DNA of 64,000 nt from Nanobdellota archaeon. GTDB lineage: Archaea; Nanobdellota; Nanobdellia; Pacearchaeales; GW2011-AR1. Shown here piece by piece: positions 3,368 through 64,000 of the stretch. The position numbers and the translations under genes were made by a program. The stretch is taken from NCBI GenBank assembly GCA_020053375.1, contig JAGVNG010000008.1, forward strand, positions 1,587-65,586, given 5' to 3'. Within the stretch, counting starts at the first letter, position 1. Each line of letters starts with the position of its first letter. Under the pieces are notes generated by a model. It was not told the DNA's origin and did not search any database. It saw nothing but the letters and a program-made list of their open reading frames with translations.

Positions 3368-5824
3368 ATGCTGGAATTGCTTGCCCGCAGGAGGTTTTCA
3401 ATGGCTTACGACGTAATCATAGGGAGAAATGAGGCTGACAAAAAGAATTTTGGGAACAGGGGGCTGATATACATTGGAAAGGGATATGTAAGAATGGGAC
3501 AATATACTTCCCTGAGCAACAGGATCCTCATGGACATTGCAAGAAGCCATGTAGTTCTTGTGGCAGGAAAGAGAGGTTGTCTTGAAGGAGAAACGCTAAT
3601 TTTTACTGATAAAGGTTACAAGAAAATAAAAGATTTTGATAAAAAAAATGACAAAGTTTTATCATTCAATAAAGAAAAAAAAGAATTTGAATGGGAAAAT
3701 GCTGAATTGTTAGAATATCCAATAAAAGATGAAAAATTACTTCAAATAGAATTAAAAGATGGAAGGATAATTAATCTGACAAAAGAACATCCTTTAATGT
3801 CTTCTTATGGGAAATATGTTTATTATAGAAGGGCTTGTGATTTAAAAGTGAATGAAAAAATTGTTTTGCCCACATATTTACCAGAGGTAGAAGATGAGAG
3901 GGAAAGTTTGCAAATTGCAAGGCTTTTGGGTTATATATTAGCAGATGGAAACATTTTTATTCAAAAAGGAAAATTCAAAGACGGAAGAGGAAAATGGTAT
4001 AATGGGACAAAAGCAAGAATAAGGATAAATAATGATTGTGATGAGGTCCTATCACAAGCTAAGGAGGATTTTGAAAAAGAGTTTGGCATAATTGCAAAAA
4101 GAAAAAAAAGAAAAGATTGTAATTGTGAAATTGTGGAAACAAAACATCAAAAAATAGTAAACAAATTTTTAGAATTAGGAATTCCATCGGGAAATAAATC
4201 AGCAATTATAAGAATTCCAAAAATAGTTTTTGAGAGTTCAAATAAATTTAAAGCGAATTTTATATCTGCATTATTTGATTGTGATGGATATATTAATTCA
4301 TCGGGGAGATATATAGATTATTCCTCAAAATCAAAGAAATTTTTGGAAGATTTACAAGTATTATTAACTCACTTTAAGATAGAATCTGTTATAAGAGTAA
4401 AAAATGCTAAATGTAATGAAAAAATATTTGAGAATTATAGATTATTTATTACAGATAATAATTCTGTAGAAAATTTTAAAGAAATAGGTTTTACAAGCAG
4501 ATTCAAGCAAGAGCGGTTAGATAAGCATAAGTCAAATAAAACAAAAAGAAGAAAAACCCATTATATTAAAGAATCTCTTGTCTGTGTTAAAATTAGTTCT
4601 ATTAAGGAATTAAAGGGCATAGATAAAGTATATGATTTATCTGTGGATAAAAATCACTCATTTATAGCCAATGGGATTATATCTCATAATTCAGGAAAAT
4701 CATATACTCTTGGAGTAATCGCAGAGGAACTTTCAAATCTTCCAAAAGAAGCAAGCCAGAATATAGCATCGCTTATATTTGACACGATGGGAATATACTG
4801 GACAACAAAATACAAGAACGAAAAAGACAAGGGGCTTCTCCAAGAATGGGGATTGAAATCAAAAAACCTTAATGTAAAAATTTTTGTTCCATTTGGGCAT
4901 TTTGACAGGTATCTTGAAAAAGGGATTCCTGTTGATGAAAGGCTTGCCTTGGATATAAATGAACTGAATGCGGAGGATTGGATAATTACCTTTGGTTTGG
5001 ATATAGTAAGTCCAGTTGCAGTAATAATAGAAAGGGCAATAACAAAGCTGAAAAAAGGTAAAGATTATGATATAGATGAGCTGGTTTCGGAGATAGACAA
5101 GGATGAAAAAACTCCGAGGGAAACAAAAAATGCAGCAATAGGATTGTTTGAGGCTGCAAAAACATGGGGAATATTTGCGGGAAAAGACGAGGAGCCAACC
5201 CAAGTCAAGGATTTGGTATACGCTGGCGGAACCGTTGTTCTTGATTTAAGCGTTTATAATTCAATAGGAGCATTCAATGTAAGGGCTCTTGCAATAAGCC
5301 TGATATCCCGTAAGATATTCAACTCAAGAATGGACCAAAGGAAAGATGAAGAGGTTGAGTCCGTGGCAAGAGGGTTGGATTATTCATCAAAAATTGAAAA
5401 AAAGGAAAATCCATTGGTTTGGATGTTTATAGATGAGGCGCATGAATTCTTGCCTCTTGGCTCAAAGACAATTGCAACGGATGCGCTTGTCCAGCTGTTG
5501 AGGGAAGGAAGACAGCCCGGTATTTCATTGGTTCTTGCAACTCAGCAGCCAGGACAGATTCACAGAGATGTTATGACACAGTCAGACATAGTAATAGCAC
5601 ACAGAGTAACTTCCGAGCCGGATGTTCAGGCATTAAATTATATAATGCAAAGTTATTTAATAGAAAATGTCAAAAAGTATATGGACGACCTTCCAACATT
5701 AAAGGGCTCAGCGATTCTCCTTGACGACAATTCAGAGAGAATATATTCAATAAGAATGCGCCCAAGATTTACATGGCATGGTGGAGAAGCGCCTACGGCA
5801 ATAAGCGAGGAGAAGAAATTATAA
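3368..5824 (+). CDS. HerA/FtsK-like (DUF87-type) P-loop ATPase interrupted by an intein; probable true start at 3401 (MAYDV)
   Basis: Exteins join to VLVAGKRG|SGKSYTLGVIAEE (Walker A), FIDEAHEF (Walker B), LVLATQQPGQIHRDVMTQSDIVIAHRVTS; GGAGG Shine-Dalgarno-like 8 nt before the ATG at 3401; the ORF-track N-terminal extension is the conserved leader. Confidence 0.7.
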   Translation: MLELLARRRFSMAYDVIIGRNEADKKNFGNRGLIYIGKGYVRMGQYTSLSNRILMDIARSHVVLVAGKRGCLEGETLIFTDKGYKKIKDFDKKNDKVLSFNKEKKEFEWENAELLEYPIKDEKLLQIELKDGRIINLTKEHPLMSSYGKYVYYRRACDLKVNEKIVLPTYLPEVEDERESLQIARLLGYILADGNIFIQKGKFKDGRGKWYNGTKARIRINNDCDEVLSQAKEDFEKEFGIIAKRKKRKDCNCEIVETKHQKIVNKFLELGIPSGNKSAIIRIPKIVFESSNKFKANFISALFDCDGYINSSGRYIDYSSKSKKFLEDLQVLLTHFKIESVIRVKNAKCNEKIFENYRLFITDNNSVENFKEIGFTSRFKQERLDKHKSNKTKRRKTHYIKESLVCVKISSIKELKGIDKVYDLSVDKNHSFIANGIISHNSGKSYTLGVIAEELSNLPKEASQNIASLIFDTMGIYWTTKYKNEKDKGLLQEWGLKSKNLNVKIFVPFGHFDRYLEKGIPVDERLALDINELNAEDWIITFGLDIVSPVAVIIERAITKLKKGKDYDIDELVSEIDKDEKTPRETKNAAIGLFEAAKTWGIFAGKDEEPTQVKDLVYAGGTVVLDLSVYNSIGAFNVRALAISLISRKIFNSRMDQRKDEEVESVARGLDYSSKIEKKENPLVWMFIDEAHEFLPLGSKTIATDALVQLLREGRQPGISLVLATQQPGQIHRDVMTQSDIVIAHRVTSEPDVQALNYIMQSYLIENVKKYMDDLPTLKGSAILLDDNSERIYSIRMRPRFTWHGGEAPTAISEEKKL
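3578..4690 (+). mobile_element. intein (371 aa) with LAGLIDADG homing endonuclease domain, inserted in the Walker A motif of the host ATPase
   Basis: Starts with Cys (CLEGETLIF...), ends ...GIISHN followed by Ser; two LAGLIDADG motifs (LLGYILADGNIF, ISALFDCDGYI); removal restores GKRGSGKS. Confidence 0.8.
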
Positions 5825-26896: not shown

Positions 26897-27014
26897 TGGC
26901 CCCGATGGGATTTGAACCCACGACACCTGGATATCTCCTCGTTTGTACAAAGAGGTACAGAACCTAAGTCCTGCGATAAGAGTCCAGTGCTCTACCAGAC
27001 TGAGCTACGGAGCC
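26897..27014 (-). tRNA. tRNA-Lys(CTT) with a 44-nt intron at the canonical 37/38 position
   Basis: GGCTCCG-TA-GCTC-AGTCTGGTA-GAGC-A-CTGGA-CTCTTA[intron]A-TCCAG-GTGTC-GTGGG-TTCAAAT-CCCAT-CGGGGCC-A; acceptor and T stems pair (one G.U each). Confidence 0.75.
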
Positions 27015-39685: not shown

Positions 39686-40246
39686 TTGTTAAATAATAAA
39701 AATAAAAGGGTATTAAATTTATATCCCTCATTTATAATGATAAAGAAAAAATTATTGATTATTTTGTTAGTTATCGTCTCTCTAATATTTCTTCTGTTTA
39801 TCATAAGATTAATCAGCCCAAAAGAAATAGACGATGTAACGCCAGGGATATTCTGCGAAACAAAATATCTGGAAAAGAGCGATATCTTATGGGTAATTCC
39901 TGATTTCGACAACACTGCGATTTCAGAAAACGCATCATGGTGTAAGCACATATTAAGCCTGAATAAGACTCTTGGAATGCATGGTATCATGCACGCATAT
40001 GATGAATTCCTTGTTGACAGAAACAATGAATATCTTTACAGGGGAATAAAAATATTTGAAGATTGTTTTGGCTTCAGACCAGAAATGTTCAAGCCGCCCC
40101 AGCTGAAGATATCCGATAGCAACACGAAGCTGATAGAAGGCAATAATCTTAAATTAAAAATGAATTTTAATCAGTTAGTGCATAAGGTTTATCACTGCAA
40201 TGATGAACCTGAATTTGTTAAAAATAAGGTTATTGATTGGGTTTAA
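39686..40246 (+). CDS. hypothetical protein with N-terminal TM helix
   Basis: 186-aa ORF. Confidence 0.35.
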   Translation: MLNNKNKRVLNLYPSFIMIKKKLLIILLVIVSLIFLLFIIRLISPKEIDDVTPGIFCETKYLEKSDILWVIPDFDNTAISENASWCKHILSLNKTLGMHGIMHAYDEFLVDRNNEYLYRGIKIFEDCFGFRPEMFKPPQLKISDSNTKLIEGNNLKLKMNFNQLVHKVYHCNDEPEFVKNKVIDWV

Positions 40247-41739
40247 ATCCTAAACCTCAATATCGCGCCTATGCCAGAAAGCTTTGCAAACTGGTCTCCT
40301 TCTGTCGTGTCCGTCGAAACAATCTCAAAATTGGCAGATGTGCTTTCAGCCAGTTTCTTGAATTCCTTCATCTTCTTCTTGTCATAACTCTTGGAGATTA
40401 TGATGGTATCCACCGCACCATATCCCACTGCTTTTCTTATTTCATCCTCATTATAGATTGACATTTCTCCCCTATTTCCGAGCCTTTCAAAGAATTTTTC
40501 AAGAAGTTTTTTCTCTTTTACTATTTCCTGACTGGCGAGTATATCCTGCGATCTTTCAACTAATTCCTTCAGTCCCGATTCATCTGAATCGCCTATGTCT
40601 TTTCTGCCTATTATTTTTTCCCTTAACTTTGTGACGAGATATTCCCCGTCAATAAACTCGTCTTTTGTTGGAATAGGTCCTCCTATAAGTATGCCTTTCA
40701 GCTTAGGCATTTCAAAAAAAACCTTTTTCATTTCATCTGCTATCCGTTTGTAAAATTCTTTTGTGAGCCCCTCGGTTATTCTGTGGAATCTCTGGCTTGA
40801 ATTATGGACAACAAAACCATTGGCGATAAAATTTCCTTGCTCGGTTTCTATGTCAATGAGATTAAAATCACCGCTTCGTTCCTTGATATTAATAATCTTT
40901 AATTCTAAAATAGCATGATTATTTGAACAAATTAAAATATCTCCTACTTTCAAATTTCGCGCAATAACTTCTTCAATATTAAGTTTATTTTTTTTAAAGA
41001 ATGTATGGTCAAAAGAGCATATAATTGATTCTTCATCCTCAACAATAATCTCTAAAACTTTATCTTTAATATTTTCCCATTTATTTTTTATTCTGGTAAA
41101 AACTATTTTATTAGATTCAAAGTTTAAGCCTCTTATTTTATCATTTATTTTTAAATCAATTATATCTTTATTTTTATTATTTAAACTAACCCGGCTATCA
41201 GGACTCAAGCATTGTCCACCTGCCCTCACCTTGCTGGGAACCCCTGATGTCATCTTTTGGATTACTTCTATTCTTTTTCCCTCCAGCAATCCTATTGTGG
41301 CTTCCTTCCTGTCCATCACAAGAAGTCCAAAAACCTCTTTTACTGCGAGCATTTCCCGTAGCGGGTCAAGTATGAATTCCTTGTCACACCTGTACATCCT
41401 AACTTTAAGGGGTGTTGGGGGCTCAATTGCCCATATCTGCAAGTCTTCCTGGCTTTCTGTCTTGGAAACATTTCCGCAAAATATTGCAAACCCTGTTTCA
41501 GGAGTTTTTTTGTAGTCTTTCAAAAACCTTGTAATCTTGTCAAGGGCATTTGTGACATCTTTTCTTGTTGAAGTTGATTTTATGTTCTTGGCCGTTGATT
41601 TTTCCGCTTCAAGCTGGTCTGCAACAGTGTAGATGTTCTGCCCCTCGGGGATATACACCGTGATAAGTTCTGTTGCCCTTGCCCTGTGTTCGCCAAGCTC
41701 TTCCACCAGCTCCTCAAGTTCTTCTTTATTTATTTTCAT
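40243..41739 (-). CDS. prf1: peptide chain release factor aRF1 interrupted by a mini-intein directly after the GGQ motif
   Basis: Exteins join to ...SKVRAGGQ|SSQRFHRITEGL... (eRF1 GGQ loop); N-terminal domain with NIKS-like NIKSTSTRKD. Confidence 0.8.
   Translation of the reverse strand: MKINKEELEELVEELGEHRARATELITVYIPEGQNIYTVADQLEAEKSTAKNIKSTSTRKDVTNALDKITRFLKDYKKTPETGFAIFCGNVSKTESQEDLQIWAIEPPTPLKVRMYRCDKEFILDPLREMLAVKEVFGLLVMDRKEATIGLLEGKRIEVIQKMTSGVPSKVRAGGQCLSPDSRVSLNNKNKDIIDLKINDKIRGLNFESNKIVFTRIKNKWENIKDKVLEIIVEDEESIICSFDHTFFKKNKLNIEEVIARNLKVGDILICSNNHAILELKIINIKERSGDFNLIDIETEQGNFIANGFVVHNSSQRFHRITEGLTKEFYKRIADEMKKVFFEMPKLKGILIGGPIPTKDEFIDGEYLVTKLREKIIGRKDIGDSDESGLKELVERSQDILASQEIVKEKKLLEKFFERLGNRGEMSIYNEDEIRKAVGYGAVDTIIISKSYDKKKMKEFKKLAESTSANFEIVSTDTTEGDQFAKLSGIGAILRFRI
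40801..41211 (-). mobile_element. mini-intein (137 aa, no endonuclease domain) inserted after GGQ of aRF1
   Basis: Begins with Cys (CLSPDSRVSL), ends ...NGFVVHN followed by Ser; excision restores the canonical GGQSSQRF. Confidence 0.7.
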
Positions 41740-56517: not shown

Positions 56518-56628
56518 GAGCCTGTAGTTCAGCCTGGTTAGAACGTCGCTCTGATATAATGCTCAAAGAAGCAGTTCCAAGAGAATTTAGAAAGGCGAAG
56601 GTCCACAGTTCAAATCTGTGCAGGCTCA
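56518..56628 (+). tRNA. tRNA-Ile(GAT) with a ~36-nt intron at the canonical position
   Basis: GAGCCTG-TA-GTTC-AGCCTGGTTA-GAAC-G-TCGCT-CTGATA[intron]A-GGCGA-AGGTC-CACAG-TTCAAAT-CTGTG-CAGGCTC-A. Confidence 0.7.
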
Positions 56629-62500: not shown

Positions 62501-63520
62501 TTAATAAAAATTTGTATACTTCTGTTCAACTTTTTTCCTTAATTTAAAAGCATTAGCCCACTTTGCATAAGCGTTCCATCCTTGGAGGATTTCCGCCATT
62601 TTACTGCCTGATATTTTTCCTCGATTAAATTTTCCCATTTTTCTTTCAATATTTTTTATATTCTTTTTTCTTAATAATTTATAATAATAGAAATTCCTGA
62701 AACCGACAAAATCAATTCCTCTTGATAATAAGATAATTCTTGACTTATCTGGGTGAAGTTCCAGTTTTAATTTTTCTTCTAAGAATTGACTTATTCGTTC
62801 TTTCAAATTTTCTAATTGTTCTTTTGAATTGTGCAAAATAACAAAATCATCAACATATCTTATGTAATGCTTAGCTTTAAGCAAGTGTTTGACAAAATAG
62901 TCAAGTTCATTAAGATAAACATTTGCAAAAAATTGGGATGTTAAATTCCCTAAGGGCATTCCCTTTCCAGAGGGATTGTCTGAAACATTATTATTCAAAA
63001 TTCTTTTAATAAGCCAGATTACTCCTTCATCTTTTATCCTTCTTTTTATTATATTAAGAAGGATTTTATGATTAACTTCCTGAAAATAATGCTTTATGTC
63101 TGCTTTAAGGCAATATCCAGAAGAAGCATGGTTTTTGGTAACTTTTCTTCTAAATCTTTCAAATCGCTTCAAAGCAAATAAATTTCCTCTGCCTTTTCTG
63201 TTTGCGCATGAATCATAGATGAATGTCCTATCAAAAATAGGCTCAATAACCCTTACCAATGCATGATGAACAACCCTATCTTTAAAATTAGATTTTGAGA
63301 TTTTTCTCGTTTTTGGGTCTCTCAAAATGAATGTTATCAGAGATTTTGGTTTATAATAAAAGTATTTCAGTTCATAGTGCAGTGCTTTTAAATTATCCCT
63401 CAAATTTTTTTCAAATTCAATGACGTAATCTTTTTTTGTTTTGCTCTTTCTTGCCTTTTGCCATGCAAGAATTAAATTTCTCATTGAATAAATTTTAGGA
63501 TAAAGATTATCAGTTTCCAT
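62501..63520 (-). CDS. diversity-generating retroelement (DGR) reverse transcriptase
   Basis: RT motifs: RKISKSNFKDRVVHHAL (1/2), CLKADIKHYF (3), GMPLGNLTSQFFANVYLNELD (4; LGNLTSQ is the DGR-type [ILV]GxxxSQ rather than QGxxxSP), YIRYVDDFVIL (5, YxDD), LELHPDKSRII (6/7), IDFVGF; compact 339 aa; TR immediately upstream. Confidence 0.85.
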   Translation of the reverse strand: METDNLYPKIYSMRNLILAWQKARKSKTKKDYVIEFEKNLRDNLKALHYELKYFYYKPKSLITFILRDPKTRKISKSNFKDRVVHHALVRVIEPIFDRTFIYDSCANRKGRGNLFALKRFERFRRKVTKNHASSGYCLKADIKHYFQEVNHKILLNIIKRRIKDEGVIWLIKRILNNNVSDNPSGKGMPLGNLTSQFFANVYLNELDYFVKHLLKAKHYIRYVDDFVILHNSKEQLENLKERISQFLEEKLKLELHPDKSRIILLSRGIDFVGFRNFYYYKLLRKKNIKNIERKMGKFNRGKISGSKMAEILQGWNAYAKWANAFKLRKKVEQKYTNFY

Positions 63521-63550
63521 ATTAGCATCAAAGTCCTGAAAATATGGGCT

Positions 63551-63676
63551 ATTCCGAGGTCAGAATTCCTGTTGGAAGGATTCCTGTTGCAGTTGAGGTT
63601 AGCCCTGTCAGAATTGGCATTGAACCTGGCAACTTTTAGCCAATTTACCAATTCAAAAACTTTAAAAGTTTTCACC
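63551..63676 (-). repeat. DGR template repeat (TR). Only 63551-63627 can be aligned inside the window; the upstream boundary is inferred
   Basis: 63554-63627 aligns to VR 63927-64000 with 14 mismatches, all at TR adenines on the minus strand; the in-frame translation is Asn(AAC/AAT)-rich (FNANSDRANLNCNRNPSNRN). Confidence 0.8.
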
Positions 63677-63698
63677 GAATCTGTCCGCGGACAGATTC
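63677..63698. promoter_or_regulatory. perfect 22-nt palindrome GAATCTGTCCGCGGACAGATTC between the target-gene stop and the TR
   Basis: Self-complementary over its full length; sits at the likely 5' boundary of the TR transcript. Confidence 0.4.
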
Positions 63699-63892
63699 TG
63701 TATTTTATGACTTAAAATAAATCTAAATAATGTTCTAGTAAATTGACGTGTAGTCCATATTTATCTCTCTTGCTTCAGCATTTTTCAATTGCTCATTTTA
63801 AAAGATGCTTAAAAGACACTTTCAGGACAAACCATCAAATGAATGGATGTTTAAAAATTTTGTGTTTGTTCTTATAAATGTTTCCAGCGAGC

Positions 63893-64000
63893 CTATCCTC
63901 GCTTACCCTCCATAACGCCAAAAACCCCGAGGCCAGAATCCCAGTCGGAAGGATCCCTGCTGCAGTCGAGGCCAGCCCTGCCAGAACAGGCATCGAACCC
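63893..64000 (-). CDS. 3' end of the DGR target gene (truncated by the window edge) containing the variable repeat (VR 63924-64000)
   Basis: Minus-strand frame reads ...GFDACSGRAGLDCSRDPSDWDSGLGVFGVMEGKRG-stop (TAG at 63893-63895), codon-for-codon parallel to the TR with N->D/C/G/S substitutions. Confidence 0.75.
   Translation of the reverse strand, partial: GFDACSGRAGLDCSRDPSDWDSGLGVFGVMEGKRG

Follow-up and report, generated by a model that had tools for sequence, protein, structure and literature searches.

Does the reverse transcriptase (RT) gene at the end of a 64,000-nucleotide stretch of Nanobdellota DNA (called the window here, always at its full length) belong to a diversity-generating retroelement (DGR), and how could such an element prime and stop its cDNA if no Avd protein is encoded beside it? 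DGRs are cassettes in which an error-prone RT rewrites a lectin-like binding protein at its tip. Avd is present in most, but not in all of them. Our data suggest that the locus is an Avd-less DGR of a DPANN-archaeal lineage residing in an archaeal chromosome, and we put the probability of this reading at roughly 0.88. The archaeal character of the chromosome can be seen from its coding content (PolB, CDC48, aRF1, ATP-dependent ligase, aminoacyl-tRNA synthetases) and from two tRNA genes of a length that suggests introns, and judging by its sequence the DGR is real and probably active. An initial annotation of the window had proposed a compact RT of 339 aa on the minus strand with LGNLTSQ as motif 4, a repeat 30 nt before the RT start, a near-identical copy about 373 nt further upstream, the arrangement target(VR)-spacer-TR-RT (VR, variable repeat; TR, template repeat) and a spacer free of avd-like open reading frames (ORFs). 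Each of these elements was recovered in the window, and the same arrangement was found in its relatives. Of the observations that the initial annotation had named as refuting a DGR, none was made, as far as the available tools reached.

The ORF of the RT (63520..62501) is intact and has kept all catalytic motifs, including YVDD. It matches Pfam RVT_1 (1.6e-26), and its motif 4 (residues 190-196) fits the [ILV]GxxxSQ pattern and is invariant in 34 relatives. Among the solved structures, 8ub7_A comes nearest (E 7.9e-44, RT residues 5-335); we checked that it is Brt of the Bordetella phage BPP-1 (100% identity), and group II and retron-type RTs follow among the PDB matches at about 1e-23. By these matches, the enzyme groups with the DGR RTs. 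Its sequence is 100% identical to the protein P0001, which is encoded on a contig of 65,685 nt (NCBI, JGI). Relatives at 65-75% identity number in the thousands, and the named ones come from metagenome-assembled genomes of Nanoarchaeota, Pacearchaeota and Woesearchaeota. From GTDB genomes we recovered 80 loci (given L numbers below); all but one, which is titled 'bacterium', are archaeal by title, and the named phyla are DPANN groups, with a few loci titled 'uncultured Methanosarcinales'.

The TR (63627..63551) and the VR (64000..63924) are 373 nt apart from start to start, and the TR ends 30 nt before the ATG of the RT gene. Over the 77 visible nucleotides, the two copies differ at 16 positions, all of them adenines of the TR (14 A>G, 2 A>T), which has 24 adenines. 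For the 76-nt repeat core, in which 15 mismatches all fall on its 23 adenines, a hypergeometric P of 1.7e-10 was calculated. Two of the A>G differences are the fixed pair of initiation-of-mutagenic-homing (IMH) sites, IMH* in the TR (GGAAT, 63555..63551) and IMH in the VR (GGGGT, 63928..63924), and do not stem from mutagenesis. None of the 53 non-adenine positions differs, compared with 14 of the 22 variable adenines. All substitutions are confined to codon positions 1 and 2, and the TR has 8 AAY codons. When the adenines were masked, the repeat pattern occurred exactly twice in the 64-kb window, with 0 occurrences expected from shuffles. The differences within the window are, thus, strictly adenine-specific, which is the pattern expected of recent homing and not of drift. 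The VR is followed, 20 nt past IMH, by an inverted repeat with a 6-bp stem (AGCGAG/CTCGCT) and a 6-nt loop, for which a DNA folding energy of -7.4 kcal/mol was obtained (z -1.7).

The same adenine signature was seen outside the window. In 51 relatives, 706 of 1358 TR adenines were changed in the VR, compared with 16 of 2964 non-adenine positions. The substitutions comprised 486 A>G, 196 A>T and 24 A>C, where the A>G count includes the two fixed IMH positions of each locus, and the window is skewed as the relatives are (14:2:0). Either the RT misincorporates dC and dA far more often than dG opposite a template adenine, or selection purges A>C. Five loci (L019, L053, L056 at 3854-3991, L071, L081 at 1650-1781) carry in the TR a hairpin-forming insert of 18-40 nt that is missing from the cognate VR. 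This insert has an A-rich loop flanked by CUCG...CGAG and lies between the TR body and the last 15 nt or so, which include IMH*; the TR of the window has none. The RT may skip the base of the hairpin, or else the insert serves some other purpose, for instance priming.

The cassette is built uniformly. In the 51 related loci with enough upstream sequence, the VR lies upstream of the TR (typically by 300-500 nt, with a few VRs 1-3 kb off) and the TR ends 15-40 nt before the RT gene. In nearly all of them, the VR ends with GGGGT(R) and the TR with GGAAT(R), and in most the VR is followed by a GC-rich hairpin with a GAA loop and then by an A-run. The IMH pair and the hairpin after the VR are features given for nanoarchaeal DGRs by Paul et al. 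2015 (PMC4372165). Six gene tables (L001, L003, L004, L085, L086, L087) show a target gene without Pfam match, a gap of about 330 nt and then the RT gene; the complete targets have 222-285 aa, and that of L004 is cut by the end of its contig. In each of these six genomes, the cassette (target, RT-16-TR-RT, with RT-16 being the RNA described below) is flanked by different housekeeping genes, among them aminoacyl-tRNA synthetases, MCM, TBP, eIF, ribosomal proteins and toxin-antitoxin pairs. As the housekeeping neighbors differ in every genome examined, these data suggest that the compact cassette moves, or is exchanged, as a whole.

A gene for Avd was not found. The spacer of the window offers no usable ORF of 40 aa or more besides a spurious 64-aa ORF overlapping the TR, its opposite strand holds ORFs of just 44 and 47 aa, which we rejected as avd candidates, and no Avd-like gene occurs among the window neighbors (NUDIX, ligase, SOD). 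Similarly, Avd (PF05635) had no match in the six related gene tables, and no avd was found within 5-6 kb in the relatives. Members of this RT clade, as a rule, have the order target(VR)-spacer-TR-RT and lack avd. DGRs lacking accessory genes ('Architecture A') account for 29% of DGRs (Wu et al. 2018, PMC5758913).

Which protein is diversified? At the VR, the target is read in the AAY-rich frame, which gives GFDACSGRAGLDCSRDPSDWDSGLGVFGVMEGKRG* and ends with the stop codon TAG (63895..63893), 29 nt past the VR; on the TR side the same frame reads RFNANSDRANLNCNRNPSNRNSDLGI. The VR encodes the C-terminal 27 residues or so of the target. The initial annotation had placed the upstream copy at the 3' end of a minus-strand ORF running past position 64000. 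An open frame does reach the edge of the window, but the 52-aa ORF listed there from an ATG (63993..63835) is in another frame and was discarded as target. The visible C-terminus holds the near-invariant F, L, C, P and LGV of a 65-member alignment of the target family, and the TR peptide is of the same subtype as those of L007, L009, L056 and L081 (the latter from Nanoarchaeota SCGC AAA011-G17), whose targets are 231-287 aa long with ends resembling the fragment in the window. A padded 40-aa query retrieved no homologue of the visible C-terminus, and Pfam and PDB sequence searches with the targets of L001, L003 and L081 gave no match. Scans of genome and metagenome contigs with the adenine-masked TR pattern, as well as exact look-ups of the RT, of P0001 and of the neighboring ligase, yielded no sequence past position 64000. 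In the target family of the relatives with the same TR subtype, the C-terminal VR appears to lie in a C-type-lectin (CLec) fold, and on structural grounds this Pfam-less family can be called a family of CLec-fold variable proteins. For the window's own target, we infer the fold, and with it a VR-type C-terminal domain, at the family level from these relatives. In several loci (L003 at 5509-5743, L005, L010, L013, L065), the target ORF runs 100-210 nt past the VR and through the hairpin region. Since the target ORF continues past the VR in many relatives, the VR is not always at the extreme C-terminus.

The region between VR and TR, which the initial annotation had treated as a spacer, lacks an avd ORF but is not empty, since it holds the conserved structured RNA RT-16. 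Its match is significant for the whole window (E 3.5e-7) and ends 4 nt before the visible TR. RT-16 lies directly beside the TR in the window and in each of the 16 related loci that were tested (17/17), and no more than about 4 nt separate its 3' end from the first base of the TR. In L056, RT-16 sits beside the TR although the VR is 2.9 kb away and, thus, RT-16 belongs to the TR-RT unit. The TRs of the relatives are some 80-100 nt long and begin 1-12 nt after RT-16, and it follows that about 3 nt of the VR are likely to be lost at the window edge. The linker CUACACG, the helix P2, the AAGUCAUAAAAUACAG loop, the inner hairpin and GGUGAA are all kept in the window, where the inner hairpin is intact and P2 forms 10 of 10 bp. 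P2 is a covarying helix of 10 bp: cognate strands form 9.69 bp on average compared with 7.32 +/- 0.18 for permuted loci (0/5000). The distance from the end of its 3' strand to the first TR/VR-homologous base has a median of 8 nt and is 1-12 nt in 37 of 39 loci. A single-sequence minimum-free-energy fold of 63790..63490 was uninformative on the conserved structure. When RT-1 to RT-19 were published, all that was said of these motifs was that they occur near RT genes; their discoverers linked RT-10 alone to a DGR, that of Bordetella, and speculated that others could be parts of DGRs as well (Weinberg et al. 2017, PMC5737381). In the literature searched, we found no published assignment of RT-16. 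Upstream of RT-16, about 20-27 nt before its strand S1, the stretch TTTTAAAA (63798-63805, minus strand) is a candidate archaeal TATA box for an RT-16-TR-RT transcript, but this is weak evidence in a genome of about 30-35% GC.

How is the other end of the TR framed? The 15-20 nt that follow IMH* form one continuous strand that is complementary to both strands of what Rfam draws as the local hairpin P1 of RT-16, 93-198 nt upstream of the TR. We had considered that this post-TR segment folds as a local hairpin, but RNAalifold returned no consensus pairs and shuffled versions of the segment fold equally well (mean z -0.14). Because it folds so poorly alone, the idea of a local hairpin was dropped in favor of long-range pairing. 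Unrestricted RNAduplex runs (170 nt upstream against 110 nt downstream) gave over-extended duplexes that could not be interpreted, and short anchored segments were used for the duplex tests instead. Here, we found that cognate duplexes averaged -22.5 kcal/mol and non-cognate ones -14.0 kcal/mol (0/10000 permutations).

The helix S2:S2' was scored in an ungapped alignment of 39 loci anchored on the invariant GAAU and ACACG. Its 10 bp are paired to 83.8% over these loci, compared with 65.0 +/- 1.6% in shuffles (0/500), and 9 of the 10 pairs vary on both sides. The R of GAAUR pairs with the Y preceding ACACG, as A-U in 24 loci and as G-C in 14. The covariation score was 0.625 vs 0.292, and registers slid along the alignment were 23-52% paired. 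S1:S1' covaries independently (0/5000). In the long-range pairing, G.U (48) outnumbers A.C (18), in keeping with an RNA that has the same sense as the RT gene. In the window, S2:S2' pairs at 10 of 11 positions and is followed by 4 more pairs with S1. On one strand the helix starts with the very base that follows IMH*, on the other with the very base that precedes the invariant ACACG. It encloses RT-16 and the TR. Two short stretches outside the Rfam match, AGCAUC/GAUGCU (63804-63809 and 63524-63529, minus strand, the latter before the RT start), offer 6 bp of additional complementarity that would lengthen the pairing in the window. We also looked for a bulge-helix-bulge, the substrate of archaeal splicing-endonuclease processing, in the long-range helix, but no pair of 3-nt bulges was visible. 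Handa et al. screened just 40 nt upstream of TRs for upstream-downstream duplexes, and a helix of this reach would escape a screen of that length.

Table 1. Features of the DGR locus in the window (minus-strand features in order of their lower coordinate)
Feature	Position	Strand	Remarks
DGR reverse transcriptase gene	62501..63520	-	339 aa; LGNLTSQ, YVDD; ORF listing, Pfam RVT_1, PDB match
Post-TR strand S2'-S1' (AGCCCAUAUUU + UCAG)	63536..63550	-	3' strand of the long-range helix with the 5' part of RT-16
Template repeat (TR)	63551..63630	-	VR homology visible 63551..63627; 5' limit inferred from relatives; encodes (A)RFNANSDRANLNCNRNPSNRNSDLGI
IMH* GGAAT	63551..63555	-	TR 3' end; motif as in PMC4372165
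RT-16 RNA (Rfam RF03019)	63631..63779	-	cmscan 62.2 bits (gathering 50), model 1-158 of 158
RT-16 P2 3' strand	63639..63648	-	
RT-16 palindromic inner hairpin	63677..63698	-	
RT-16 P2 5' strand	63738..63747	-	
RT-16 invariant linker ACACG	63747..63751	-	
RT-16 S2 AAAUAUGGACU	63752..63762	-	
RT-16 S1 CUGA	63775..63778	-	
Inverted repeat after VR, AGCGAG-GATAGG-CTCGCT	63886..63903	-	covers the target stop codon; candidate homing hairpin/cruciform, atypical 6-nt loop
Target (variable protein) gene, 3' end	63893..64000	-	last 35 codons + stop TAG 63893..63895; continues beyond window
Variable repeat (VR)	63924..64000	-	cut by window edge; IMH GGGGT 63924..63928

Elsewhere in the window, Rfam reports two tRNA genes (26897-27014, minus strand, 118 nt; 56518-56628, plus strand, 111 nt) that are long enough for introns, and ARAGORN found no tRNA. 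Two genes contain inteins: that of a HerA-like ATPase (3368-5824, plus strand), with an intein splicing domain and a LAGLIDADG endonuclease, and that of the release factor aRF1 (40243-41739, minus strand), with an intein splicing domain between the eRF1 domains 1 and 2.

Does the covariation between RT-16 and the post-TR segment reflect a scaffold for the RT? Two other explanations have to be weighed, and together we regard them as rather unlikely. The first is that RT-16 and the post-TR segment form two similar local hairpins, for instance as sites for one protein. Rfam does draw P1 as a local hairpin, and a stem sequence shared by P1 and the post-TR segment would produce cognate complementarity automatically. 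However, the post-TR segment alone is as unstructured as shuffled sequence and averages -2.6 kcal/mol, the long-range pairing beats two local hairpins in 38 of 39 loci, and in the window, L009, L078 and L081 some parts of the long-range pairing lack a local alternative (in the window, where P1 is degenerate, -18.6 vs -4.1 kcal/mol). The second is a translational switch whose upstream strand would mask a Shine-Dalgarno-like YAGGAY located 10-17 nt before the RT start. This element is indeed conserved just upstream of the ATG, but the exact register of the helix, directly after IMH* and directly before ACACG, would be unneeded for masking a ribosome-binding site. Moreover, such a switch is compatible with a scaffold role and need not exclude it.

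For a working DGR, we envisage the following sequence of events. A single minus-strand transcript would cover RT-16 and the TR, and probably the RT ORF as well, and would fold so that the TR of about 80 nt is looped between P2, which ends some 8 nt 5' of it, and S2:S2', which begins at the base after GGAAU. The RT would bind this RNA scaffold without Avd. cDNA synthesis would begin at IMH*, proceed with misincorporation opposite the 22 variable adenines (8 AAY, 4 AGG and 2 GAC codons; about 3e12 possible peptides) and halt at P2. The cDNA would then replace the VR, with the direction set by IMH vs IMH* together with the inverted repeat after the VR. In this way, the face with which a lectin-fold protein binds its ligand would be diversified again and again, and the protein presumably serves in attachment to hosts or other cells.

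The details of priming and stopping can be modeled on Bordetella. In the Bordetella ribonucleoprotein, the TR is looped between a template:primer duplex and the 'cPRT Stop' duplex; the cDNA extends to 4-8 nt short of the stop duplex, and its synthesis is primed by the 2'-OH of an adenosine that terminates the primer strand. By analogy, we tentatively consider the scaffold of the window a circular permutation of the Bordetella one, a proposal that is possible but has the odds against it. S2 (the counterpart of positions 47-56 of the Bordetella spacer, Sp), ACACG and the 5' strand of P2 (the counterpart of Sp 59-70) would then lie upstream of the TR in RT-16 and not downstream of it, and the RT alone would start the cDNA at IMH* and end it about 8 nt short of P2. 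S2 would serve as primer strand and P2 as stop. The priming 2'-OH would come from the first A of ACACG (63751, the counterpart of Sp A56), a base able to pair with the U of GGAAU. If this is true, RT-16-TR-RT (about 1.3 kb) would be the smallest self-contained DGR engine known.

Several observations weigh against our interpretation of the locus as an Avd-less DGR of this kind. P1 (model positions 1-40 or so) is mostly deleted or unpaired in the window, where the local S1:S2 energy is -3.8 kcal/mol; one position of S2:S2' is a C/A mismatch; and the hairpin beside the VR has an atypical loop of 6 nt with a z of just -1.7, where relatives have a GAA triloop. The covariation controls leave some phylogenetic signal. 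The priming and termination sites rest on analogy with Bordetella, 35 residues of the target are visible and its fold is taken from relatives with the same TR subtype, and past the target gene the source contig goes on for roughly 1 kb, in which an avd gene could sit.

The structural blemishes among these points would also suit a decayed or silent remnant, in which RT, TR and VR are recognizable but mutagenic homing has ceased in this organism. The inverted repeat beside the VR departs from the GC-stem/GAA-triloop form of the clade and is marginally more stable than shuffles, the local P1 stem is largely gone, and the S2:S2' duplex with its one mismatch ranks 10th of 38 in energy when compared with non-cognate partners. 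Against decay speak the intact RT with its full set of catalytic motifs, the absence of any non-adenine difference next to a majority of changed variable adenines, and an RT-16 core, P2 and long-range pairing that are all in place. We consider a remnant improbable. Finally, an RT of the retron, group II intron or defense type, with the repeat being a chance or unrelated duplication, hardly deserves consideration: P0001 and its relatives carry the source annotation 'retron-type reverse transcriptase' or 'reverse transcriptase/maturase' and the top NCBIfam model is group_II_RT_mat, but this model (TIGR04416) scores 161 bits against a cut-off of 300 and retron_St85_RT 63.8 against 235, no NCBIfam group II, retron, Abi or DRT model comes near its cut-off, Brt leads the solved relatives by 20 orders of magnitude, the Rfam scan found no group II intron or retron RNA family in the window (the RNA beside the RT gene is RT-16, followed by a TR with its cognate VR), and the improbable adenine-only mismatches recur in the 51 relatives.

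What does the locus add to existing knowledge? A DGR lineage in Nanoarchaeota/DPANN was described in 2015-2017 (PMC4372165) and is discussed in PMC5758913 and PMC8144416. The DGR itself is one more member of this known lineage and alone changes nothing. The initial annotation was right in recognizing a DGR but overrated its novelty, as the lineage, its missing domains and the accessory-free architecture had all been published (PMC4372165, PMC5758913, PMC8144416). New relative to the literature searched are the position of RT-16 on the 5' side of the TR, the long-range helix around both of them, and the CLec call for the target family; the conserved RNA fold around the template does not seem to have been described so far. 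The CLec call supports the expectation of Roux et al. 2021 (PMC8144416) that unrecognized archaeal targets are CLec variants, and the orphan motif RT-16 gains a biological context as TR 5' flank in this DGR lineage. The long-range helix would present the TR as a loop between two helices even without Avd and a 3' spacer, and provides a concrete and testable model for the priming and stopping of cDNA in accessory-free DGRs. A compact unit of RT and RNA (about 1.3 kb) could also interest builders of DGR-based tools for targeted mutagenesis.

The closest known systems are the DGRs of Nanoarchaeota/DPANN (PMC4372165; 'archaeal clade 5' of Roux et al. 2021, PMC8144416), such as L081. Both RTs belong to the same clade and share 54% identity. 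Common to the two loci are also the TR subtype (VARFNANSDRANLNCNRNP...), the pair IMH GGGGT / IMH* GGAAT, an RT-16 abutting the TR, a small target without Pfam or transmembrane domain (see also PMC8144416) and a similar target tail (...GRAGLDC..P.D....LGVF). In contrast to L081, the inverted repeat on the VR side of the window has a 6-nt loop instead of a GRA triloop, the local P1 stem of RT-16 is degenerate, and TR and VR are colinear, whereas the TR of L081 has an 18-nt insert missing from its VR.

The prototype, the BPP-1 DGR (mtd-avd-TR-Sp-brt), shares with the window a homologous full-length RT, adenine-specific differences between TR and VR, a VR at the C-terminus of a protein with a CLec fold (predicted in the window), the IMH/IMH* asymmetry, an inverted repeat after the VR and a TR between RNA helices built from upstream and downstream sequence (10.1101/2023.10.23.563531). 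However, the window has no Avd, and with so short a distance between TR and RT start there is no 140-nt Sp. Its structured RNA, the RT-16 of about 150 nt, is located on the 5' side of the TR, whereas BPP-1 has its own on the 3' side (Rfam RT-10), and the strand that pairs beside the 3' end of the TR comes from about 200 nt upstream instead of from downstream. When compared with Rfam RT-16 (RF03019; PMC5737381), the window gives a full-length match above the gathering score, but in its publication RT-16 had been an orphan motif, located 'near RT genes' and given no function, whereas here it forms the 5' flank of a DGR TR, and its P1, degenerate in the window, consists of strands that across the clade pair with the post-TR segment. 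Solved DGR variable proteins among the closest known systems are TaqVP (5vf4), AvpA (5ioo), Mtd (1yu0) and TvpA (2y3c). In its gene order, the locus resembles 'Architecture A1' (TR-RT core, PMC5758913), with target, TR and RT on one strand and no avd, HRDC, MSL or CH1 gene. It differs from architecture B3, where avd stands on the reverse strand between TR and RT and to which 90% of the set from the candidate phyla radiation and DPANN belong (Wu et al. 2018, PMC5758913), in that the 15-40 nt between TR and RT in this clade leave no room for such a gene.

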